Shown piece by piece: positions 21,097 to 32,000 of a stretch of DNA of 32,000 bases. Source of the DNA: Patescibacteria group bacterium (lineage in GTDB: Bacteria > Patescibacteriota > Patescibacteriia > 2-01-FULL-39-33); the NCBI GenBank assembly GCA_041649575.1, contig JBAZMW010000005.1, forward strand, positions 1-32,000, written 5' to 3'. Positions within the stretch are counted from its first letter, which is position 1. The number at the start of each line of letters is the position of its first letter. Position numbers and translations under genes: made by a program. A model generated the notes under the pieces. It saw only the letters and a list, made by a program, of their open reading frames with translations, was not told the DNA's origin and searched no databases.

Positions 21097-21168
21097 GCCG
21101 CCATCGTCTAGTGGTTAGGACACCAGGTTTTCATCCTGGTAACCGGGGTTCGATTCCCCGTGGCGGTA
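21097..21168 (+). tRNA. tRNA-Glu (anticodon UUC)
   Basis: A 72-nt cloverleaf folded by hand. Acceptor GCCGCCA/TGGCGGT (G1-U72), D-arm GTCT-AGTGGTTA-GGAC, anticodon arm CCAGG-TTTTCAT-CCTGG, T-arm CGGGG-TTCGATT-CCCCG. CCA is not encoded. Confidence 0.93.
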
Positions 21169-22666
21169 CTAATGGGGAACTGGCGAGAGCCAGCTCTCTT
21201 TTTGTTTGTAAAATTGGTGATAATTTCGGGGTTTGAAATTTTATATAGTCATAACTCGGCTTTTCGGGAAAAACCAAACCCTGCAATTGAATTTTTTGCT
21301 CAAATGTTGCCCGCTCCCAATTTTCTGGCAGAGTTTTTATATAGGTAAAAACATAATCAATCGCCTCATCAAGATTAAACTCTTCAAATTTTGTTTCTGT
21401 TAGATTTGCTTCTTGATAATCAATGTCTTTATTGAGTTTATTGAAGGCCTCCTTAAAATCATCATCGGGCAATAAGTCCCTTTTCTTCATTTCAATCAGT
21501 TGAAGCTTTTCTTGTTTTAAACCCTCTATCCGTTTTATTCGGTCTTGCCTCTCTTGATTTATTTTTTTATACTCGCTTTCCCAAACATCAAGAATGACCG
21601 CCTTAAATCCTTTAAGAAACTTATCTTTGGGAGTAATTTCTTTTAGATAATCCAAAAAATCTTTTTCTAACTTCTTTTTGGGAATTGATTTTTTTGATGG
21701 GCAATTTTTGTTATAGCAACCATAGTAAGGAAATTTGCCTCCGCACTTGCCCGTTGAGAAATAGGCGGTTAATGGCCTCCCACAATAGCCACAAATAACC
21801 TCGTGCCTTAATGGAAAACACTCGCTCGCTTGGTTTCTTGATATACTTTCGCTCCTACTATGGCCATTTAAGACATTTTGGCACTTATAAAAAGTTTCGG
21901 CATCAATGAGCCTCTCGTGGTTTGCCTCATACTCCCTGCCCCTGACAGTCATTATGCCAATATAAAATTTATTGGTAATAATTCTGTATATGAGTTGCGG
22001 TGAAATTTCTTTGCCCATCCAGCTCCTCAATCCTTTATCATTAACCCTGCGCCTGACATCTTCAAGAGTATAAAGGCCAGTGGCGTATTCCTCAAAAGCC
22101 CATTTGATTAACGGCGCCCGATTTTTATCAAGCGTAATTACTTTTTTATTAAACTCGTCTCTCGTGTTGGTGTAGCCGATTTTAGCTTTCCAGCACCAAA
22201 ATCCTTGCTCAACTTTTTCTCGCATACAATCGGTTATCCTTTGGCTTTTTATCTCGTTATCTAATTGGGCGCTGGAGGCCATTAAATTGCCGATAAATTT
22301 GCCAATGGGGGTGTCGTCAATGCCTGCTTCGGAGGTGGAAATAAACCTAATACCGAGCTTTTTAAGTAATAACAAAATATTCGTATAATCATTTACGTTT
22401 CTGGTTAGTCGGTCAATTTTATAGACAATAACACAATCAATGCCTTTGCCTTTCTGCGTGCAAAATTGAAGCATTGCCTGCAAGCTCGGCCTGTCAGCGG
22501 TTTTAGCCGATACGCCGTCATCGTGAAACATCTTGATTATTTCTATCCCATTTGTTTCGGCATAATTCAAACAGCTCTTTTTCTGTTGCTCCAAACTAAC
22601 GCCAAATTGAGCTTGGTCTTCGGTTGATACTCGGTAATAAATTATGCCTTTGAGTTTTGTTTTCAT
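21131..22666 (-). CDS. Large serine recombinase (integrase)
   Basis: Resolvase-type N-terminal domain with GIIYYRVSTEDQ (catalytic Ser) and DRLTRN. Also has a recombinase domain, a zinc ribbon (CGYCGRPL...YYGCYNKNC) and a coiled-coil C-terminal region. ATG at 22666 is preferred over the ORF-track start at 22708. The 3' end overlaps tRNA-Glu by 38 nt. Confidence 0.9.
   Translation of the reverse strand: MKTKLKGIIYYRVSTEDQAQFGVSLEQQKKSCLNYAETNGIEIIKMFHDDGVSAKTADRPSLQAMLQFCTQKGKGIDCVIVYKIDRLTRNVNDYTNILLLLKKLGIRFISTSEAGIDDTPIGKFIGNLMASSAQLDNEIKSQRITDCMREKVEQGFWCWKAKIGYTNTRDEFNKKVITLDKNRAPLIKWAFEEYATGLYTLEDVRRRVNDKGLRSWMGKEISPQLIYRIITNKFYIGIMTVRGREYEANHERLIDAETFYKCQNVLNGHSRSESISRNQASECFPLRHEVICGYCGRPLTAYFSTGKCGGKFPYYGCYNKNCPSKKSIPKKKLEKDFLDYLKEITPKDKFLKGFKAVILDVWESEYKKINQERQDRIKRIEGLKQEKLQLIEMKKRDLLPDDDFKEAFNKLNKDIDYQEANLTETKFEEFNLDEAIDYVFTYIKTLPENWERATFEQKIQLQGLVFPEKPSYDYIKFQTPKLSPILQTKRELALASSPLVPPRGIEPRLPG
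21180..21205 (+). terminator. Terminator-like hairpin after tRNA-Glu
   Basis: CTGGC-GAGA-GCCAG, or alternatively GAGAG-CCAG-CTCTC, followed by TTTTTGTTTG. Confidence 0.5.
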
Positions 22667-22814
22667 ATTTTTTAATAAAAAAGGGACGATTAATCGCTTT
22701 GAACACAACCAACCCAGATAGGCAGTTGAAGCGGTAATCGCCCCGTTTTTATGTCAAAAACATTAGATTTTTTGGCAAAAAAATAATCTGGATTGGTAGT
22801 TGTGTTCGTAGGTA

Positions 22815-22986: not shown

Positions 22987-24207
22987 CTAATCATAAGCCC
23001 CCCTTGTATTACGCTGGTTAGCGTCTATAATTTTGGACACTGGATTACGCTGGTTAGCGTCTATAATTTTGGACACTGGCGAAGCGAAATTAAGCCCCAG
23101 TTCTTGCTGAATAGTTGAGATTATTCCAAATTGCTCCAAGATATATTTGTGGATTTTTACATTATCCAACTTGCCCAATTCCCGCCAGTCAAAATGATTT
23201 TGTAGCTCGGCCAAGCGGGCAAGGTAGTTATACCAAGTTTGCCTGCTCTTATATGTCTTGAGATATTGTTTGCGGGTTTCGGCCAAGCCGTTTTCCTGCA
23301 GTTCGCCAATTATTTGCCTGATAGTGGCCTTGGTTTGGATGTGGTTATAATGCTTGTCTAAAAAGTCGTCTATTATGGGTTGCTTTTCTAAGGATAAAAA
23401 GATAATTTTTTGCAGAGGATGATTAAAAACTTCATCAACCTGCTCCCTTAAAACTTGCTCCCAAATATTTTGTTTAAAAATATTCTCCAGCGTGGGAGGC
23501 AAAACGCCAAGATATGGTTTAAATTTTTCTTTTATTTTGCGGGGTGTTTTAAAGGTCGCTTCAATCCTTAAAATCTCTTTGGCTAATTGTCCGTCCATTC
23601 TAAATTCCCCCTTGCGCAATAAATCGGCAATAGCCAGCTCTTTTTGGGTTTCGGCGCTATTTAACATCTCTTGGTTTTTGCCGTAAGCTTTTAAGGTTTC
23701 GTTTTTAGTGCTTAAAATTACCTCCCGCCCGCCGTGCTTGTAGTCGTCAAAACCAATTACTCGGTGTTTTGTGTGCGTTTTATAGTCAAAGGGGCTTAAC
23801 ACCTTGAGAGCATTATTGACCGAGCAAATAGGAGTTAAATTTATATTAATGCCGATAGCAACAAGCGAGGGCAAGCAAGCTTTTATTTGCGCTGGGAAAA
23901 TAAAAACCCCGATTTTTTGACAAAAACGGGATATGGCATACACCAACTCTTCAAGCTGGCTCTCCTTGATTTCAATAAGATTGCCTCCCGTTATCATCTT
24001 GGGAGCGGAAAATTCAATATAAAAATAAGTTTTACTGGGGTATTTAAAATCTGACTCAATAGAATACTTTGGCACATATAAGCCAAGTTTTTGTTGTTCT
24101 TTGCGCCAAGGGTTATTTGTCCAAACATCCTTGCCCCATAGTTTTTCGGCAAAAAAAGAGTTATTCGGATGAGGGTAAATAAATTTTAATTTAATGGTGT
24201 CAAACAT
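22987..24207 (-). CDS. Replication-initiation-factor-like protein (Rep_trans / phage gene II-X-like, tentative)
   Basis: About 406 aa from MFDTIKLKF. Segments YIEFSAPKMITGGNL and VILSTKNETLKAYGKNQE resemble conserved blocks of rolling-circle replication initiators. The C-terminus carries an exact 12-aa tandem repeat. The upstream TTG start (24273) lies in a hairpin and is rejected. Confidence 0.55.
   Translation of the reverse strand: MFDTIKLKFIYPHPNNSFFAEKLWGKDVWTNNPWRKEQQKLGLYVPKYSIESDFKYPSKTYFYIEFSAPKMITGGNLIEIKESQLEELVYAISRFCQKIGVFIFPAQIKACLPSLVAIGININLTPICSVNNALKVLSPFDYKTHTKHRVIGFDDYKHGGREVILSTKNETLKAYGKNQEMLNSAETQKELAIADLLRKGEFRMDGQLAKEILRIEATFKTPRKIKEKFKPYLGVLPPTLENIFKQNIWEQVLREQVDEVFNHPLQKIIFLSLEKQPIIDDFLDKHYNHIQTKATIRQIIGELQENGLAETRKQYLKTYKSRQTWYNYLARLAELQNHFDWRELGKLDNVKIHKYILEQFGIISTIQQELGLNFASPVSKIIDANQRNPVSKIIDANQRNTRGAYD
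23008..23079. repeat. Perfect 36-bp tandem duplication (2 copies)
   Basis: ATTACGCTGGTTAGCGTCTATAATTTTGGACACTGG occurs at 23008-23043 and again at 23044-23079. It encodes PVSKIIDANQRN twice at the Rep-like C-terminus. Confidence 0.95.
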
Positions 24208-24226
24208 AGGAAGGTCTAAGCTTAAG

Positions 24227-24275
24227 CCATTGCCCGTCTCGGCGACCCTCCAAGGAAAACCGAGACAAGGCAATG
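24227..24275. promoter_or_regulatory. GC-rich imperfect palindrome in the Rep-like gene leader
   Basis: Arms CCATTGCCCGTCTCGG and CCGAGACAAGGCAATG (15/16-nt arms with one indel), separated by 17 nt. Located 20-70 nt upstream of the ATG at 24207. Confidence 0.5.
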
Positions 24276-24373
24276 ACCCAAAATTATTTCAAATAAAAAC
24301 CATCTTAATTTTTACATAATTAAGATGATTAAATAACTCGTTTTTTTATCGGTGTTTATTAGAATTTTTAAAT

Positions 24374-24403
24374 AAAAAAACGGCTTTATTTAGCCATTTT
24401 TTT
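24374..24403. terminator. Bidirectional terminator-like hairpin
   Basis: An A-run, then GGCT-TTATTT-AGCC, then a T-run. On the minus strand it follows the 382-aa gene. Confidence 0.45.
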
Positions 24404-24433
24404 AAAGATATTAACACCGAGTAAAAAACCGAT

Positions 24434-25582
24434 TCAAAATATTTTATCATTCCACCTGTAAATATTAGCTTCTTGTTTCTTATTTTCACCCTTAATTATA
24501 ATTTCCCTTATTAATTTATTTTCTTTATTAATTCTTTTATTGATTTGATTAATTGATTTGTTAAATTCATCGGAATTTATTGGCGGGTGGTCATTTTCTA
24601 TAAACTTATTAAAATCGTTATAGGTTAGAAATTCCCCATTTATTTTATTTGATTCAATAAAGAAATTAATAATCATTGCGGGCGTTTTATCAAAAGAAAG
24701 CCGTTTTTTGCCTAAATGTAAAGTGCCTTTGGGCTTATTTCCATCCAAATATTTGTAAGAAATTTTTTCTTCCAAGTCCTCTCCCTCTTTTTCATTGGGC
24801 AGGGTTTCTATTAGATGATTTAAAACAATTTCAGCGTTGTTTTTTATTTTTTTCAAAATTTTATTATTATCTATGAGGTCGTCTCCACGCATATTATAAA
24901 ACGCTTCATAATCAGCTCTGGGATATCTTTGGACGCAAAAAATTAAAAATTTCTCAAAATTTCTTAGCTTCATTCTAATAGGAACTCTATATATCAAGTT
25001 ATCAAATTTATCAAGCAATTTTTTAAAGTTGTTAAATAAAACTTCAAATTTTTCGTATTCATTTTCATTGCGTTCGTTAATTGACCAGCTTATAACAGAA
25101 AACATATGGCCAATAGCGCTATATTGATTTCTAATCGCCCAGGTTCTGGTAAAAATAAACGGGTCATCAATAGAAGAAATGCTAACATTCCCAAGCTCGT
25201 AATAATTATTTTTGTCTTGAATTTTTTGGTATAAATCTTTTAATTCAATGTCGTGGTTATCTTCTCCTTTGAGCTTAATGAATAAATGTCGATTTTCTCC
25301 CTTTAATTCTTCATTAAGCTGGTCAATTTCTCTTTGATTAGTAAAACTTGCCATTTTTAAAATACTATCAAACAGCTCATTTTCAGTTTTGATATATTCA
25401 TCATTTTTAACAAGATTTTTAAAATAATCAAAAATGCTATAAAATTTTTCTTTTAAATCTTTACTTTCGTGAATAAAATCATATAAATCAATGGAAATTA
25501 TATTTTCAATATTTTTATCCAATGCGGTGGCTTTTTCTATGTCGGATTTAAATGCCTCTAATTTTTTGTGGAGATTATTCAT
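24434..25582 (-). CDS. Hypothetical 382-aa protein, possible C-terminal winged-helix DNA-binding region
   Basis: A long ORF in very AT-rich DNA, rich in Lys, Asn, Glu and Ile. The C-terminal ~90 aa (LSFDKTPAMIINFFIES...LTYNDFNKFI...SINQINKRI...IYRW) resemble an OmpR/PhoB-type winged helix. No family was recognised for the remainder. Confidence 0.65.
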   Translation of the reverse strand: MNNLHKKLEAFKSDIEKATALDKNIENIISIDLYDFIHESKDLKEKFYSIFDYFKNLVKNDEYIKTENELFDSILKMASFTNQREIDQLNEELKGENRHLFIKLKGEDNHDIELKDLYQKIQDKNNYYELGNVSISSIDDPFIFTRTWAIRNQYSAIGHMFSVISWSINERNENEYEKFEVLFNNFKKLLDKFDNLIYRVPIRMKLRNFEKFLIFCVQRYPRADYEAFYNMRGDDLIDNNKILKKIKNNAEIVLNHLIETLPNEKEGEDLEEKISYKYLDGNKPKGTLHLGKKRLSFDKTPAMIINFFIESNKINGEFLTYNDFNKFIENDHPPINSDEFNKSINQINKRINKENKLIREIIIKGENKKQEANIYRWNDKIF

Positions 25583-25708
25583 CTTGGAGGGTTTAAATTA
25601 AAATTTATGGTCTTGAATGCTATTATATTAATATTAAATTAGCTAAAAATCAAACAGTTAAAAGGCAAATTTTCATTTCCAGGATGGCTGTTCAAAAAAG
25701 TTATTTAC

Positions 25709-25717
25709 TGTTATAAT
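25709..25717 (+). promoter_or_regulatory. Extended -10 promoter element upstream of the restriction-modification operon
   Basis: TGTTATAAT (TGnTATAAT) lies 29 nt upstream of the ATG at 25746. No good -35 element is present. Confidence 0.35.
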
Positions 25718-25745
25718 AAAAGTATAAACTATAAACAACAAAAAT

Positions 25746-28160
25746 ATGCCTTTTAATGAAAGAAAAACCGAAAGTATTGTCAGAAAAACATTAGAGCAAT
25801 ATAAGGAGATATATGAAAAAGACACGGAAAAGTGTATTTTTATTGAAGAACAAAAATCAGATAATCCCATTATTCAAAAATTGTTAAAAACAGCATCTAA
25901 AAGAGGGGACGGAACGGGATACCCAGAATTTATAGTTAGTTTTCAGGATAGTAATTTGATTATAGTTATTGAATGCAAGGCAGACATTGGGAGCCATAAA
26001 AGTAAAAATCTTAATCAATTTAGTAAGTATGCGGTGGATGGTGCCCTATTATATTCTTCTTATTTATCAAAAGAATTTGATATTATTTCGATTGGCGTTT
26101 CTGGTGAAAATTCAACAGAAATGCTCGTTGATACATTCCTACAACTCAGGGGAGAAAAAAACGCAAGAGATTTAAATATAAAAAAGCTTTATGACTTTGG
26201 AAGCTATTTTAATGTTTTCAAAAATGATGCCATCAAAGAAGAGAATGACTTTGTAAAGTTAATGAAGTATTCTAACACTTTGAATCAAAATCTGAGAGAT
26301 AATTTTGAATTTGAAGAGAATGTAAGGCCTTTAATTGTTAGCGGGATACTGCTCGCCCTTGAGGATGAAAGCTTTGTAGTTTCATATAAAAATAAACAAA
26401 AGCCATCAGAGATAGCAAATTTAATTATAACCACCATAAAAGAGAGATTGGAACGCGATAATATTAAGGGCGCCAAGTTAGAAACGATTATTCAAACATA
26501 TGGCTTCGTTAGAACTAATACAAAAATAATAAACGATAGAGATAAAGATGGAACCCCAAATACTCATTTAAAAAATTTGATTAGAGAGATTGAGGATAAC
26601 GTTAGGCCATTTTTGCGGGATTACAAACAGTATGATATTATGGGGAGATTTTATAATGAGTTTTTAAGATATGCCAATGGAGATGGGGGGCTTGGTATTG
26701 TTTTAACTCCCAAGCACATAACGGAATTATTTATAGAGCTTGCGGAAGTAAATAAGGATACCGTAGTCATTGATAATTGTTGTGGAACGGGAGGGTTTCT
26801 AATAAGCGCAATGAAAAGAATGGAAGATTTAGCCAATGGAGATAAGACAAAAATCAAGGAAATACACACCAAACAACTGATAGGGATTGAGGATAACCCA
26901 AAAATGTTCTGCCTCGCATGTTCTAATATGATGTTAAGAGGTGATGGAAAATCAAATATTTTTCAACAAGATTGTTTTCAAATAGATGAATCTGAGGTAA
27001 AGAGGTTAAAACCGACGGTCGCCCTACTCAACCCTCCATACTCAAAAGAAAATGGCCATAAAGAGCTGGAGTTTGTATGGAATGCACTATCTCTATTAGA
27101 GCCCCATGGAACTTGCATCGCAATTGTTCCACAATCTTGCGCCATGAATACTAAAAAGGGCAATGAGAATGTTAAGGAAAGGATACTTAAACACCATACT
27201 CTTGTAGCGGTTATGAGTATGCCCAACACACTTTTCGACGACAGTGAAAAAAGTTCTGTAACCTGCGTCATGGTTTTTGAAGCCCATAAGCCCCACGGTG
27301 AAAATACTAAAACGTGGTTTGGTTATTGGAAAGAAGATGGTTTTAAGAAAAAAAGACCATATGGAAGAATTGACTATTATGGAACATATGGAAAAGAAAT
27401 AAAAAGCTTTTGGCTCGATAGTTATTTTAATAAGAAAGAAATTAAGGGATTTTCAGTTTTAGAGCATGTTAGTTCCGAAGATGAATGGTTAGTTGAGCCC
27501 TATCTTAAGACGGAATTTGAAGAATTGAATGATTGTGATTTTATAGATTATTTGAAGGAATATACAACCTTTCTTTATTATAATAAATTAACTAAGATGG
27601 TATCGATTGACAGCTATAATAAAGATAGATTAAAATTAGATTTCAACAATTGGCAACCCATACAATTGGGCTGGAATGAAAATAATCAAGGGGGGTTGTT
27701 TGAGATAATTGGCTCAAAAACTTCAAATAAAAAAATTTTAGACAAAGTAAATATTGCTGGAAATAGAATATATCCATATGTTACAACTCAGGCGACAAAC
27801 AATGGAATTAGAGATTGGTATAACATTTATACTGACGACGGGAACGTTTTAACTATTGATAGTGCCGTTGTTGGATATTGTGCATATCAACCATTAAATT
27901 TTACTGCCAGCGACCATGTAGAAAAATTATTACCAAAATTCGAGTTGAATGTATTTAGGGCAATATTTTTAGCTACAATTATAAATTTAGAGCAAAAAAA
28001 AATATCCTACGGTAGAAAATTTAATCAAAGCAGAATAAAAAATACAATAATTAAACTTCCATTTAAAAGCGGGATTGTAGATTGGGAGTTTATTGAAAAC
28101 TATATCAAAGGATTGCCATATTCTAAACATTTAGAATTGAATGTGGTTAAAGTTTCTTAA
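25746..28160 (+). CDS. Single-chain restriction-modification-specificity enzyme (Type IIG-like)
   Basis: The N-terminus has an HSDR_N-like PD-(D/E)XK pattern (GYPEFIVSF...LIIVIECKAD). The middle is a gamma-class N6-adenine methyltransferase with motif I VIDNCCGTGGFL and motif IV NPPY (nt 27030-27041). The C-terminal ~230 aa resemble a single HsdS target-recognition domain, ending in a conserved helix (IIKLPFKS...WEFIENYIKGL). Confidence 0.85.
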   Translation: MPFNERKTESIVRKTLEQYKEIYEKDTEKCIFIEEQKSDNPIIQKLLKTASKRGDGTGYPEFIVSFQDSNLIIVIECKADIGSHKSKNLNQFSKYAVDGALLYSSYLSKEFDIISIGVSGENSTEMLVDTFLQLRGEKNARDLNIKKLYDFGSYFNVFKNDAIKEENDFVKLMKYSNTLNQNLRDNFEFEENVRPLIVSGILLALEDESFVVSYKNKQKPSEIANLIITTIKERLERDNIKGAKLETIIQTYGFVRTNTKIINDRDKDGTPNTHLKNLIREIEDNVRPFLRDYKQYDIMGRFYNEFLRYANGDGGLGIVLTPKHITELFIELAEVNKDTVVIDNCCGTGGFLISAMKRMEDLANGDKTKIKEIHTKQLIGIEDNPKMFCLACSNMMLRGDGKSNIFQQDCFQIDESEVKRLKPTVALLNPPYSKENGHKELEFVWNALSLLEPHGTCIAIVPQSCAMNTKKGNENVKERILKHHTLVAVMSMPNTLFDDSEKSSVTCVMVFEAHKPHGENTKTWFGYWKEDGFKKKRPYGRIDYYGTYGKEIKSFWLDSYFNKKEIKGFSVLEHVSSEDEWLVEPYLKTEFEELNDCDFIDYLKEYTTFLYYNKLTKMVSIDSYNKDRLKLDFNNWQPIQLGWNENNQGGLFEIIGSKTSNKKILDKVNIAGNRIYPYVTTQATNNGIRDWYNIYTDDGNVLTIDSAVVGYCAYQPLNFTASDHVEKLLPKFELNVFRAIFLATIINLEQKKISYGRKFNQSRIKNTIIKLPFKSGIVDWEFIENYIKGLPYSKHLELNVVKVS

Positions 28161-28171
28161 TAAAATTGACT

Positions 28172-29284
28172 ATGTATAATATAAATAAAAAAGACCACAA
28201 ATTAGAGCCCATAGAAAAAATATCTTTGAGGGTTGTTGGCATAAGAGAAAGAAAAGATTTACAGGAATGGATTGCTAAAAATCCTGAAATTTTGGGGGAG
28301 GAACTTTTAATAATTCAGAAAGAATTTGATGGCTTTAATGATACCAATGAAAGATTGGATTTATTGGCTTTAGATAAACAAGGAAACTTGGTTGTTATCG
28401 AAAATAAATTGGATGATTCTGGGCGCGATGTTGTGTGGCAAGTTTTGAAATACGCCTCTTACTGTTCGAGTTTGAATAGTCAAAATATTAAGGATGTTTT
28501 TAACCAATATTTAATAAATAATGGGCGCGAAGGAACGGCAGAAAAGATTTTTGAGGAATTTTTCAATAATGAGGACTATGAAGACAAGCTAAACAATGGA
28601 AATTCCCAAAGAATAATAATGGTATCTGGAGAATTTCGTAAAGAAGCTACGTCAACGGTTTTATGGTTGCTAAATTTCGGGTTAAGGATTCAATGTTTTC
28701 AGGCATCAACCCACAAATTAGGTGACCAATTATTTTTTAATATTGAGCAAATCATCCCCATGAAGGGCGCCGAAGAGTATGCCATAAGCATGGCCAATAA
28801 GAATTTAGATGAATTGAGCACGCAAGAAGAGTTAAAAAACAGACATTATAAAAGATTAGAATTTTGGACTCAATTTTTAAGAGAAATAAATAAACATAAT
28901 GACCTGTGTAGTAACGTTAGCCCGAGTAGAGACAGTTGGATATCTATTGCAATTGGGATGGGGGGAGTAAGTTTAAATATTGTTATTTCTAAGAATTATG
29001 CCAGAGCCGAAATATATATAAACAGGGGCGACCAGAATGAAAATAAAAAGTTTTTTGACTATTTTTTTAATAATAAGGAAAAAATCGAAGGAGAATTTGG
29101 AAGTTCTTTAATATGGGAGCGAATGGATAATAAAATTACCTCAAGAATAAAATGTCAATTGGACGGCGTAAACGCCCATGAAAAAGAGGATTGGGATAAA
29201 ATAAATCAATTTTTAATTGACGTTGTCGAACGTATGGAAAAAGTTTTTAAAAAACAAGTGAGAGAGTTAAGAGCCCAAATTTAA
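28172..29284 (+). CDS. NucS-like PD-(D/E)XK nuclease domain fused to DUF4268
   Basis: The N-terminal region ERKDLQEWIAKNPEILGEELLIIQKEF...RLDLLALDKQGNLVVIENKLD...QVLKY fits the NucS/DUF91-type nuclease pattern. The C-terminal region FWTQFL...AEIYINRGDQNENKKFFDYF...IEGEFGSSLIWERMDNK fits the DUF4268 pattern. An alternative TTG start exists at 28166. Confidence 0.8.
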   Translation: MYNINKKDHKLEPIEKISLRVVGIRERKDLQEWIAKNPEILGEELLIIQKEFDGFNDTNERLDLLALDKQGNLVVIENKLDDSGRDVVWQVLKYASYCSSLNSQNIKDVFNQYLINNGREGTAEKIFEEFFNNEDYEDKLNNGNSQRIIMVSGEFRKEATSTVLWLLNFGLRIQCFQASTHKLGDQLFFNIEQIIPMKGAEEYAISMANKNLDELSTQEELKNRHYKRLEFWTQFLREINKHNDLCSNVSPSRDSWISIAIGMGGVSLNIVISKNYARAEIYINRGDQNENKKFFDYFFNNKEKIEGEFGSSLIWERMDNKITSRIKCQLDGVNAHEKEDWDKINQFLIDVVERMEKVFKKQVRELRAQI

Positions 29285-29300
29285 GCCAATCTTAATAATT

Positions 29301-30767
29301 ATGAAACGCATAGTAGCAACTGATTTTTATAATTATACTAAATGTAAATATTTGGTATATCTCGAAAAAAATGGAGACCAAAAGTCAAAAGACAGGGTCT
29401 CCGATTTTGTTAAAATGCTTTGGTATAGGGGTATTCAACATGAAAAGGAAATAATAGAGAAAATTGCCAAAGATAAAAACAAAAACTTTGCCGAAGTTGA
29501 TAAAAATAAAAAAGCTAATCAGGAAACTTTTGAGCAAACTTTAGAATTAATGAAAAGGGGCGTTGATTATATTTATCAGGGAGTTTTAATTAGTGATAAT
29601 TATATCGGCAGGCCGGATTTAATGGAAAAAGTTGATGGCAAATCTATATTCGGCAATTATTATTATATTCCGATTGATATAAAAGCGGGTAGGGGTTATG
29701 AGGGCGAGGAATTTGATGATGAGAGGACGAAACTGTCATATAAGCTCCAAATAACGTTTTATGCCCTGTTATTGGGCAAAATACAGGCCTATCAGCCAGA
29801 AATGGGGAAAATTATCAATATAGACAAGGAGGAACTGGAATATAAACTGGACACGCAAGATGAGAAATTTGTTGCTTATTTCCAAGACATTGAATTAATG
29901 GCAAGGGGCGAAGAGCTATATCAGCCGACCATCAGCGGGAAATGCGGAATGTGCCAATGGAAAACATATTGTAAAAACTGGGCTGATAAGAATAAAGATT
30001 TGTCATTAATTTATTATTTAGGAGAACAAAAATACGGCCTGCAAAGTTATGGTATTAATAGCTATGAAGATTTATTAAAACATCCCCTTGGTGAATGGTT
30101 GGATATTTTGCCAACAGCTAAAAAACAGGGTTACTTTAAGGGGATAGCAGAAAAAAGTTTAACTAATTTTTATAATCGGGCTTTGGTTTATATTAGTGGG
30201 AAAGAGGTAATCTATAATAAGATAGATTTTCCATCGGGAAGCAAGGAAATACATTTTGATATTGAAGATGACCCAACGCAAGATATAGTTTATATGTTTG
30301 GATTTTGGATTATAGATAATGGCAAGGGTTATTATCATGCTATTGTAGCTGAAAACATAAACGGAGAAGAAAAAGCCACTCGGGAATTGTGGGAGTTTTT
30401 AAAAATAAACCAAGGTATTCCGATGTATCACTACTCCCATCATGAAAAAAGCACGTTGAGACGGTTGCAGGAAAAATATAGTTTAGACCCGTCTGTTTAT
30501 GAGCAATTTTTAAATGACGCCTTTGATTTATATAGCGCAGTAACAAAAAATACCGATTTTCCTTTGACCAGCTATGGTCTCAAGGCAATTTGTAAACATC
30601 TTGGATTTCATTGGAGTGCTGAGGACGCTGGCGGAGCCAATTCTATTGAGTGGTATTCAAAATACTTGGCGGGAGATAAATCAATGATGGATAAAATTTT
30701 AAAATACAATGAGGAGGACTGTAAGGCGACCGCTTATTTAAAGGATTATTTAATTTATGCAAAGTAG
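29301..30767 (+). CDS. TM0106-type RecB/Cas4-like Fe-S nuclease fused to an RNase H-fold (DEDD-like) exonuclease
   Basis: Cys15 plus CGMCQWKTYC (nt 29943-29972) give a four-Cys pattern like Cas4/AddB. The nuclease motifs are GRPDL, IDIKAG and QITFY (QxxxY). The C-terminal half carries IHFDIEDDP, YHYSHHEKS and YNEEDC, consistent with a 3'-5' exonuclease fold. Confidence 0.8.
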   Translation: MKRIVATDFYNYTKCKYLVYLEKNGDQKSKDRVSDFVKMLWYRGIQHEKEIIEKIAKDKNKNFAEVDKNKKANQETFEQTLELMKRGVDYIYQGVLISDNYIGRPDLMEKVDGKSIFGNYYYIPIDIKAGRGYEGEEFDDERTKLSYKLQITFYALLLGKIQAYQPEMGKIINIDKEELEYKLDTQDEKFVAYFQDIELMARGEELYQPTISGKCGMCQWKTYCKNWADKNKDLSLIYYLGEQKYGLQSYGINSYEDLLKHPLGEWLDILPTAKKQGYFKGIAEKSLTNFYNRALVYISGKEVIYNKIDFPSGSKEIHFDIEDDPTQDIVYMFGFWIIDNGKGYYHAIVAENINGEEKATRELWEFLKINQGIPMYHYSHHEKSTLRRLQEKYSLDPSVYEQFLNDAFDLYSAVTKNTDFPLTSYGLKAICKHLGFHWSAEDAGGANSIEWYSKYLAGDKSMMDKILKYNEEDCKATAYLKDYLIYAK

Positions 30768-31044
30768 ATTATCAAAAATTGAAAAAAGATTACTCGAAAT
30801 TGATGAGGAAAAAGAGTTTGGAGTTTATAACTATGGCGAGAATTTAACTGGAAATTTTGATGATGAAATTGAGAAAAGCCGTATTTTACATTTTGATATA
30901 GAGAAAAATAAGCTACAAATGGAAAGGCAATTTATACTTGACGGGAGGAACGGTTGGTGGTTTAGAATCGTCTGGGATATGGTAGTCCCTATAATTATTA
31001 CCCTTATAACAATATTTTGTTATTTAAAGTTTGGGATAAAATAA
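30757..31044 (+). CDS. Small tail-anchored membrane protein (95 aa)
   Basis: Its ATG overlaps the upstream gene by 11 nt. The N-terminal part is acidic and helical. A single C-terminal TM helix is present (WWFRIVWDMVVPIIITLITIFCYLKF). Confidence 0.6.
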   Translation: MQSRLSKIEKRLLEIDEEKEFGVYNYGENLTGNFDDEIEKSRILHFDIEKNKLQMERQFILDGRNGWWFRIVWDMVVPIIITLITIFCYLKFGIK

Positions 31045-31162
31045 TTTTTTTCCAAATTAAATTTTGCCATAGCCAATTAGGCCAAGATATTCAAACCATT
31101 TCTTAATATCATAAATAATCGGGTTTAAATTCTCAATACAGTAGTGTACCAGTAAAACAAAA

Positions 31163-31193
31163 GCACCATAAGTCTGGTGTTTTTGTTTTTTTT
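31163..31193 (+). terminator. Rho-independent terminator after the island operon
   Basis: GCACCA-TAAGTC-TGGTGT followed by TTTTGTTTTTTTT. Confidence 0.7.
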
Positions 31194-31213
31194 ATGTAAA
31201 AATTTTTATAGAA

Positions 31214-31250
31214 TAAAAAAAGAAAGTCCACGCGTGCTCATCGCGTGGAC
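31214..31250 (-). terminator. Rho-independent terminator of the right-flank minus-strand gene
   Basis: GTCCACGCG-TGCTCAT-CGCGTGGAC, followed on the minus strand by TTTCTTTTTTT. Confidence 0.8.
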
Positions 31251-31272: not shown

Positions 31273-32000
31273 TCAGGTCGGGATCTGAAAGCCTCCTCGC
31301 TGATTCCGTTTGATCCTTTTCGACCCAAGGAGCCTCTTTATGGCCGCCCTTATCTGCCGGTTGACCTTGACCGTCGACAGGCTTCTGTCGAACAGCCAAT
31401 GGGTGGTTCCCAGTTCGGCCAGATTGTCCAGCAGGTACTTGTCGTCGACAGGCAGATCAGTATCAACCGCCAAGGCCTCATTGATCGCCTCGATCACAGC
31501 CGCGTCGCAGTCCGCCTCGGTCTCAATGAATCGTCTCGATGGCGGTTTGGAGTCTGACGGCGGATTGGGCTCGGATTTCCTTGGTGGCTTGGACTTTCTC
31601 GGCGGCTTGGGATCTGACGGCGGATCGGGATCGGGCTCTGGCTCGGGATCGGGCTTGGCCCTTTTTCCTTTCTTGATCACGCCGTTTTCCAGATGCATCT
31701 CGCCGGCCGGCTCCATAAAACTGAAAAGAACCTGCCGTACTTGGTTTTCGACAATCGTCGATCCTATCGTGGACACGTCGTAGCCGTATGTTGCCGCGTT
31801 CTTGGATATTGCTTCAAGCAATTCCTCGAACGTCAGGTTCCAAACAAACTGCTCCTCGACAGCCAAGACCAGCCTTCTCCAGTCATCGGAGACTTTCCCT
31901 GGATCAGTGGAATTCCTCGGCGTTTTCAGCCGGATGCTCCTGTCTCTCTCGCCCTTTTTAGGGGCGGCTACGAAAGGGGCGAGCGATTCCTCCTTCGACC
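31273..32000 (-). CDS. Hypothetical GC-rich protein with a Pro/Asp/Lys-rich linker (5' end beyond the window)
   Basis: On hand translation the frame stays open from 31866 to the window edge, so the ORF-track TTG start at 31866 is probably internal. The linker reads PDPEPEPDPDPPSDPKPPRKSKPPRKSEPNPPSDSKPP and separates two small globular parts. No family was recognised. Confidence 0.6.
   Translation of the reverse strand, partial: SKEESLAPFVAAPKKGERDRSIRLKTPRNSTDPGKVSDDWRRLVLAVEEQFVWNLTFEELLEAISKNAATYGYDVSTIGSTIVENQVRQVLFSFMEPAGEMHLENGVIKKGKRAKPDPEPEPDPDPPSDPKPPRKSKPPRKSEPNPPSDSKPPSRRFIETEADCDAAVIEAINEALAVDTDLPVDDKYLLDNLAELGTTHWLFDRSLSTVKVNRQIRAAIKRLLGSKRIKRNQRGGFQIPT

Follow-up and report, generated by a model that had tools for sequence, protein, structure and literature searches.

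A nuclease-rich four-gene block of a Patescibacteria bacterium as probable modular defence cargo of a serine-recombinase integrative element

Results

Four tightly packed genes in an AT-rich island

In this study, a stretch of 32,000 nucleotides (nt) from a Patescibacteria group bacterium (contig JBAZMW010000005.1, positions 1 to 32,000 of the forward strand; hereafter the window) was analyzed for a block of four adjacent genes, designated g1 to g4. An original prediction, made from the letters of the sequence, had described them as a candidate undescribed composite defence system, with independent cargo genes as the alternative. The block and its signals comprise the following features, with lengths of open reading frames (ORFs) given in amino acids (aa).

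25746-28160, plus strand: g1, 804-aa ORF, single-chain Type IIG restriction-modification-specificity enzyme
28166-29284, plus strand: g2, 372-aa ORF, MdgA-type / PDC-S11 nuclease
29301-30767, plus strand: g3, 488-aa ORF, TM0106-family nuclease
30757-31044, plus strand: g4, 95-aa ORF, membrane protein with a tail anchor, from a small conserved family
25709-25717, plus strand: putative extended -10-like element TGtTATAAT, 29 nt before the g1 ATG
31154-31197, plus strand: terminator-like hairpin with T-run (31154-31189) at the 3′ end of the block

The g1-g2 spacing is 5 nt from the TTG start of g2, and 11 nt if counted from the ATG at 28172, the start that fits a 370-aa public database entry; g2 and g3 are 16 nt apart, and the end of g3 shares 11 nt with the beginning of g4. 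The GC content is 0.27-0.36 over positions 24000-31000, compared with 0.43-0.50 in the left flank, and climbs to 0.56 on the right side. In the Pfam, NCBIfam and PADLOC scans, g1-g4 showed no ATPase or helicase domain. The predicted co-directional packing, the single extended -10 element with a single terminator, the AT-rich island and the lack of an ATPase or helicase were all reproduced, and the domain make-up proposed for the four genes was matched in profile scans and by motif inspection.

The original prediction further stated that no named multi-gene system was recognizable in the block, and this held: the PADLOC and NCBIfam scans gave only sub-threshold partial matches, namely to mad2 (48 bits, cut-off 720) and DruK (E = 0.041). 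PADLOC gave no match in the block to PglZ, DrmA/B or other signature proteins, and no signature set of MADS, BREX, DISARM, Druantia or other systems was present in it.

g1 is a predicted Type IIG enzyme

Residues 7-613 of g1 matched the PADLOC model REase_MTase_IIG (4.8e-133), with nuclease and methylase in one polypeptide. The methylase domain, of gamma type, matched N6_Mtase in Pfam (5.9e-29) and carries DNCCGTG at 343 and NPPY at 429; ahead of it stands the nuclease motif PE60...E76-C-K78. The target recognition domain (TRD) is represented by one Methylase_S stretch (residues 642-788, 9.3e-13), also recognized in PADLOC as Specificity_II (4.1e-12). Similar to Type IIG/BcgI-like enzymes, g1 combines an N-terminal PD-(D/E)XK nuclease with an HsdS-type TRD and an N6-adenine methylase in which motif I precedes NPPY; it differs in that the restriction-modification (RM) and specificity (S) parts are fused in one 804-aa chain with a single TRD. 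Fused RMS forms of Type IIG enzymes are familiar, e.g., CjeI/AloI.

Relatives of g1 on small plasmids (30-41% identity) have a separate S and occur as two-gene RM+S pairs, consisting of an RM protein of ~640-650 aa, annotated as N-6 DNA methylase, and an S protein of ~320-350 aa. Beside these plasmid pairs, no g2-, g3- or g4-like gene or other nuclease partner was found, the neighbours being plasmid housekeeping and toxin-antitoxin genes. These features mark g1 as a complete Type IIG RM enzyme, the fused RMS version of a stand-alone system. It would place N6-adenine methylation on the sites of the host and cut incoming DNA that lacks it, and it probably acts as a dimer because it has only one TRD.

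g2 belongs to the MdgA-type nucleases

A full-length match to the PADLOC PDC-S11 model PDLC04913 was obtained for g2 (1.6e-146, residues 3-371 of 372). Its N-terminal part matched NucS_C at the Pfam cut-off (4.2e-5) and contains the motif D65...E79-N-K81, and its C-terminal part is DUF4268 (residues 230-363, 5.1e-37). The family is large, with >6,700 matches and members from many phyla at 57-60% identity; the ENKLDD motif was found in 110 of 120 family members, and the member P0216 (58% identical to g2) reads VIVENKLDD with the Glu at position 77. A sequence search of the PDB with g2 returned no relative.

A single ORF of the NucS+DUF4268 type, named mdgA (modification defence gene A), is necessary and sufficient for defence against T4; the purified MdgA degrades glucosyl-hydroxymethylcytosine T4 DNA but has far lower activity on T4-GT7 DNA, and an E77A substitution, for which the mutagenic primer encodes VIV(E>A)NKLDD, abolishes the activity (bioRxiv 10.1101/2025.02.28.640651). 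g2 has the same two-domain architecture, and its VVIE79NKLDD matches the E77 motif of MdgA as read from that primer; the likeness lies in the architecture and the primer-encoded motif, and g2 comes from a bacterium of the candidate phyla radiation (CPR). By analogy, g2 is a probable modification-dependent (Type IV-like) restriction enzyme, which, judging from the MdgA experiments, would cut hypermodified phage DNA that escapes g1. With a Type IIG RM enzyme in g1, and in g2 a PADLOC candidate family of validated MdgA architecture, the proposed defence character of the block was supported.

The closest relatives of g2 reside in different surroundings: that at 82% identity is the last gene of an hsdR-hsdM-hsdS operon, that at 74% lies downstream of an OLD nuclease on a different serine-recombinase element, and that at 68% belongs to a cluster of methyltransferase, NERD, g2-like, UDG and Mrr genes. 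No TM0106 gene was found near these three.

g3 is a predicted TM0106-family double nuclease

g3 scored 295.1 bits against TIGR03491 (cut-off 97.45; 9.6e-88), covering model positions 4-462 of 462, and also matched PDDEXK_1 and RNase_H_2 (1.4e-29). In a 46-sequence alignment, C215, C218, C224, D106, K128, D320, E322, D409, Y469 and D473 were invariant, and C15 and D126 were nearly so. These residues include the RecB-type motifs GRPD106 and D126-I-K128, and the exonuclease motifs D320-I-E322, D409 and Y469...D473. As read from these motifs, g3 is a Cas4-like four-Cys PD-(D/E)XK domain joined to a PolB-type 3′-5′ exonuclease domain. Consistently, the COG2251/PF13482 proteins (RNase H-like family F.13) are predicted 3′-5′ exonucleases related to the PolB exonuclease and fused to a DUF83/Cas4-like nuclease, with AAA-domain repeats as frequent co-occurring domains (Majorek et al. 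2014, PMC3985635). A sequence search of the PDB with g3 returned no relative. g3 would most likely process or degrade free DNA ends, by combining a 5′-end-processing Cas4-like activity with a 3′-5′ exonuclease.

Cas4 proper was also considered for g3. The N-terminal half matched Cas4 models in PADLOC at 1.5e-12, and the four-Cys PD-(D/E)XK fold is common to both. However, the TIGR00372 score of g3 was 45.8 bits, under the cut-off of 65, and g3 has an additional exonuclease domain; no cas family was matched by the neighbouring genes that were scanned, and no cas gene or CRISPR array was noticed nearby. This assignment was therefore rejected.

Within the TM0106 family, most relatives are chromosomal, but the clade of g3 is carried by integrative elements of CPR, next to defence genes. 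Most members look like housekeeping genes, as in Nitrospira, where a two-component system lies downstream of the g3 relatives. Two chromosomal relatives at 59-63% identity to g3 are found in repair-like settings, one (locus L091) with RecQ-like, GTPase and DinB genes, and the other (L092) with RarA, Cas4-like and UDG genes. In L092 (7001-9281), the TM0106 gene overlaps the 3′ end of a RarA/MgsA-like gene, and a separate Cas4-like nuclease of 250 aa comes after it, with UDG nearby, an arrangement that suggests a repair-type module.

g4 represents a small tail-anchored protein family

g4 has a single hydrophobic segment at its C-terminus (residues 76-94, Kyte-Doolittle 2.24). A word-index search returned g4 alone, as if it were an orphan, but an exhaustive phmmer search of 1.84 billion representatives rejected this, yielding 63 relatives at E<=1e-3, 9 of them at E<=1e-10. 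The relatives are 90-130 aa long and have a common IEKRLLEI...RQFILDxRNxW followed by one transmembrane helix.

To 19 metagenomic loci carrying g4 relatives, scanned with a 12-sequence alignment, belong several restriction-type clusters. In L104 (5950-6279), the g4 relative starts 2 nt after a Type I HsdR gene in a cluster that also has HsdM, and in L095 (5827-6282) it closes a cluster of a Type I M-S fusion, an OLD-family nuclease and two unknown genes. In L105 (5950-6279) it follows a DUF4145/PD-T7-4-like gene, and the two sit as an inserted pair among housekeeping genes, with RF/FtsEX/PCMT on one side and ClpP-like genes on the other. The upstream genes of the remaining loci are unannotated. 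g4 would thus be a small tail-anchored membrane protein, whose relatives also close other RM, OLD or DUF4145 clusters.

Linkage among g2, g3 and g4 is not conserved

Homologues of g2, g3 and g4 were then compared across related loci (denoted by L numbers), including 80 from a genome scan with the g3 alignment. With the g2-family hidden Markov model (HMM), no member was found in 88 other g3-containing loci (the 80 scan loci and L001-L008, some of them duplicates), only that of the window. With the g4-family HMM, the window was likewise the only positive among 93 loci with g3 relatives, and the 19 loci with g4 relatives contained no g2 or g3 relative. Genes 2-4 thus showed no conserved linkage in these loci, and the three closest g2 relatives lie elsewhere, as described above.

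Conserved linkage among g2-g4 homologues had been named beforehand as the test of a single undescribed composite defence system, and its absence speaks against that claim; given the missing linkage, the alternative of independent cargo genes is the better reading. The association with RM genes survived in part: g2, g3 and g4 each recur separately beside RM-type genes, and it did not stand for the three as one system.

The probable carrier is a recurring serine-recombinase element

The block is preceded by further genes of the low-GC island, as follows.

21097-21169, plus strand: tRNA-Glu (UUC) found by ARAGORN, left border of the island and likely integration target; GC drops directly rightward
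21131-22708, minus strand: large serine recombinase, 525 aa (Resolvase 4.7e-34, Recombinase 7.7e-16, Zn_ribbon_recom 7.4e-9)
22987-24273, minus strand: Rep-like protein, 428 aa, element backbone (weak Phage_CRI match, 5.6e-4)
24434-25582, minus strand: 382-aa AT-rich protein without family, divergent from the cargo (27% GC)

The 3′ end of the recombinase ORF overlaps that of the tRNA-Glu gene by 39 nt. The right edge of the island lies at ~31116-31220, and GC climbs beyond ~31220. No exact att repeat (>=8 nt) of the tRNA 3′ end was found at the right border; positions 31116-31132 hold an imperfect, degenerate 13/17 match to the 3′ half of tRNA-Glu.

Proteins identical to g2, g3 and g4 were found on a 114-kb contig of a Patescibacteria metagenome-assembled genome. 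The same layout was found at different host positions in other CPR genomes (L001, L004/L005/L009, L007/L008 and L089/L090). In common, the minus strand carries a serine recombinase (where the contig reaches), an HTH_17 gene, a gene of ~370-410 aa and a gene of ~300-380 aa, and the plus strand carries the cargo. The Rep-like protein of the window is 66% identical to that of a 413-aa gene in the Buchananbacteria element (L004/L009). The 382-aa protein had no match in Pfam, NCBIfam, PADLOC or PHROGs, and its similarity to the same-position genes of related elements (~300-370 aa, including that of L004) was undetectable; the element may have a second variable slot at this position. The comparison shows that CPR/Patescibacteria carry a recurring type of serine-recombinase element with an exchangeable defence slot.

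Among 2.9 million viral contigs, no relative of the Rep-like protein and only 2 relatives of g3 were found, and therefore a phage origin is not supported. g3, g4 and the Rep-like protein likewise had no match in PHROGs.

Two repeat-containing stretches were also observed. The 3′ end of the Rep-like gene holds two tandem 36-nt copies (23005-23076, 97% identical), through which the peptide PVSKIIDANQRN appears twice; these may be iteron-like repeats of an origin. Beyond the right edge of the island, the first host gene (31273-31866, minus strand) encodes a 197-aa protein with a low-complexity stretch rich in Pro, Asp, Glu and Lys, which is built from 18-nt-periodic DNA repeats (31541-31652).

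Neighbours of g3 relatives vary

On this element type, the g3 relatives are 65-81% identical and all lie on the plus-strand arm, with neighbours that differ. In L001, a Type I-like methylase with HSDR_N_2 and an S subunit precede the g3-like gene, and a DUF5655/PDC-S18 gene follows it. In L004/L009 and the related L010, a 1190-aa helicase-nuclease (AAA_11/AAA_12 + MTES_1575, PDC-S37/Hhe-like) precedes the g3-like gene; between the window and L004, the Rep-like proteins are 66% and the g3 proteins 68% identical, and in L004 the helicase-nuclease replaces g1+g2 in position. L007 carries only a g3-like gene and PDC-S18, and in L089 the g3-like gene stands alone on the plus strand, with IIG RM and DUF5655 genes on the other arm.

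Across the 80 genome loci, 7 had an N6-methylase ORF within ~3 kb of the g3 relative (L015, L048, L049, L068, L071, L075 and L085), and 4 more had a helicase or helicase-nuclease directly upstream of it (L009, L010, L026 and L077). Other neighbours were Schlafen/Fic-like genes (L083) and a DUF6119 gene (L081). The pair of helicase + MTES_1575 directly upstream of TM0106 was observed in L004 (6400-9972), L010 (4401-7976) and L026 (1756-6492), from Buchananbacteria, Nealsonbacteria and one Planctomycetia metagenome-assembled genome.

The DUF5655 (PDC-S18) proteins, which are carried by elements of the type that also harbours the g3 relatives (L001, 11472-12383; L007, 5167-6090; L089, 2916-3806, minus strand), have the NucS-like N-terminal nuclease of PDC-S11/g2 and a different C-terminal domain, so that PDC-S18/DUF5655 resembles a sister form of the MdgA architecture in which one domain was swapped. 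Whether g3 and a NucS-like (DUF4268/DUF5655) gene make up a conserved pair was considered, and the association was taken as co-residence instead. Such a gene follows the g3 relative in L001 and L007. The DUF5655 gene of L089 is distant from the g3-like gene and on the opposite strand, and none was recorded beside g3 in the annotated L004/L009, L091 and L092, most other loci being unscanned for DUF5655.

Discussion

Because g1 relatives stand alone, a single MdgA ORF suffices for defence, and linkage among g2-g4 is not conserved, the block is best explained, with a probability of roughly three in four, as modular defence cargo on an integrative element with a serine recombinase, and not as one four-part system. 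It would form the cargo arm of a ~10-kb element inserted beside tRNA-Glu in a Patescibacteria (CPR) bacterium, with the serine recombinase, the Rep-like gene and small genes as the minus-strand backbone. The cargo genes are probably co-transcribed without being mutually dependent, and their tight spacing would reflect a compact cargo organization and not an obligate complex. g2 would cover modified DNA that the RM enzyme cannot cut, and g3 appears to travel with the element family whatever defence gene sits upstream.

Several points weigh against this reading. A functional unit would likewise be compatible with co-transcription and with translational coupling through the 11-nt overlap of g3 and g4, and the missing conserved linkage does not exclude local cooperation. 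The genes of the fetched loci were called crudely, as simple longest ORFs, and the loci are best-scoring matches, not a random sample, with some duplicates and with the g3 set chosen through g3 itself. Further, g3 relatives seem to adjoin endonuclease-type defence genes more often than chance would give (judged with no matched background), a lead that hints at an accessory role.

Such a role would make g3, perhaps together with g4, a portable accessory that clears or processes the ends made by an upstream endonuclease, RecBCD-like after restriction, so that g1 and g3 form a loose functional pair and g2 is an independent insertion. g3 relatives indeed lie directly downstream of IIG or Type I-like RM genes (window, L001, L075, L085), and follow a Type ISP-like methylase-TRD protein (L068), an SNF2 helicase + MmeI-like RM pair (L048), the AAA_11/AAA_12 + MTES_1575 helicase-nucleases (L004, L010, L026) or an SNF2 helicase (L077); the frequent AAA-domain repeats in COG2251 (Majorek et al. 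2014, PMC3985635) fit as well. However, most g3 relatives are not beside defence genes, those of Nitrospira being accompanied by the two-component system, the CPR chromosomal relatives with DinB/RecQ-like (L091) or RarA/Cas4-like/UDG genes (L092) look like general repair, and the g3-like genes of L007 and L089 have no upstream endonuclease, so this explanation is considered unlikely. The retention of g3 in 5/5 variants of the element type, while the surrounding defence genes change, would also be expected if g3 were a backbone gene serving the element's own replication or recombination, e.g., in end processing of a replicative intermediate, with g1+g2 as the only defence cargo. In the comparison of the window with L004, the identity of g3 (68%) tracks that of Rep (66%), but in the comparison with L007 it is 65% for g3 and only 22% for Rep, which argues against a simple co-evolution. 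Moreover, the relatives at 59-63% identity occupy chromosomal settings that lack the recombinase and HTH_17 backbone genes, elements lacking g3 are invisible among loci picked via g3, and the viral contigs hold only the 2 g3 relatives; a backbone function is thus improbable too.

A single composite system, in which the RM enzyme senses or cuts the invader, g2 and g3 degrade its DNA, g4 acts as a membrane effector and all four are needed, would account for the tight spacing, the one promoter-like element with one terminator, and the failure of any named system to fit. Against it, no conserved g2-g3, g3-g4 or g2-g4 co-occurrence was seen in ~110 related loci, elsewhere genes of the g1 and g2 types each suffice or stand on their own, and the closest related element has a different gene instead of g1+g2. 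This makes an obligate four-gene system highly improbable.

Read as modular cargo, the block is unremarkable as a defence locus, with an RM enzyme stacked next to a modification-dependent nuclease on a mobile element. The immigration control region of E. coli, with hsd beside mcrBC and mrr, is a familiar case of this defence-island pairing. Like such islands, the block places a methylation-protected enzyme beside a nuclease for modified DNA on mobile or variable DNA, and it differs from the E. coli region in the gene families, the host phylum and the carrier, here a serine-recombinase element with a Rep-like gene.

The analysis extends the newly validated MdgA-type nuclease family to CPR/Patescibacteria, and flags two uncharacterised families that recur 3′ of restriction-type clusters, the TM0106 nucleases and a tail-anchored protein of ~100 aa. 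The value of the locus rests mainly on these unexplained TM0106 and small-membrane-protein associations. It is rather doubtful that the TM0106 double nuclease, perhaps along with the g4-family protein, serves restriction-type defences on CPR integrative elements as a portable accessory not described before, placed behind whichever endonuclease or helicase-nuclease precedes it; if true, the finishing or processing of cut DNA would be the first function for the large uncharacterised TM0106/COG2251 family.

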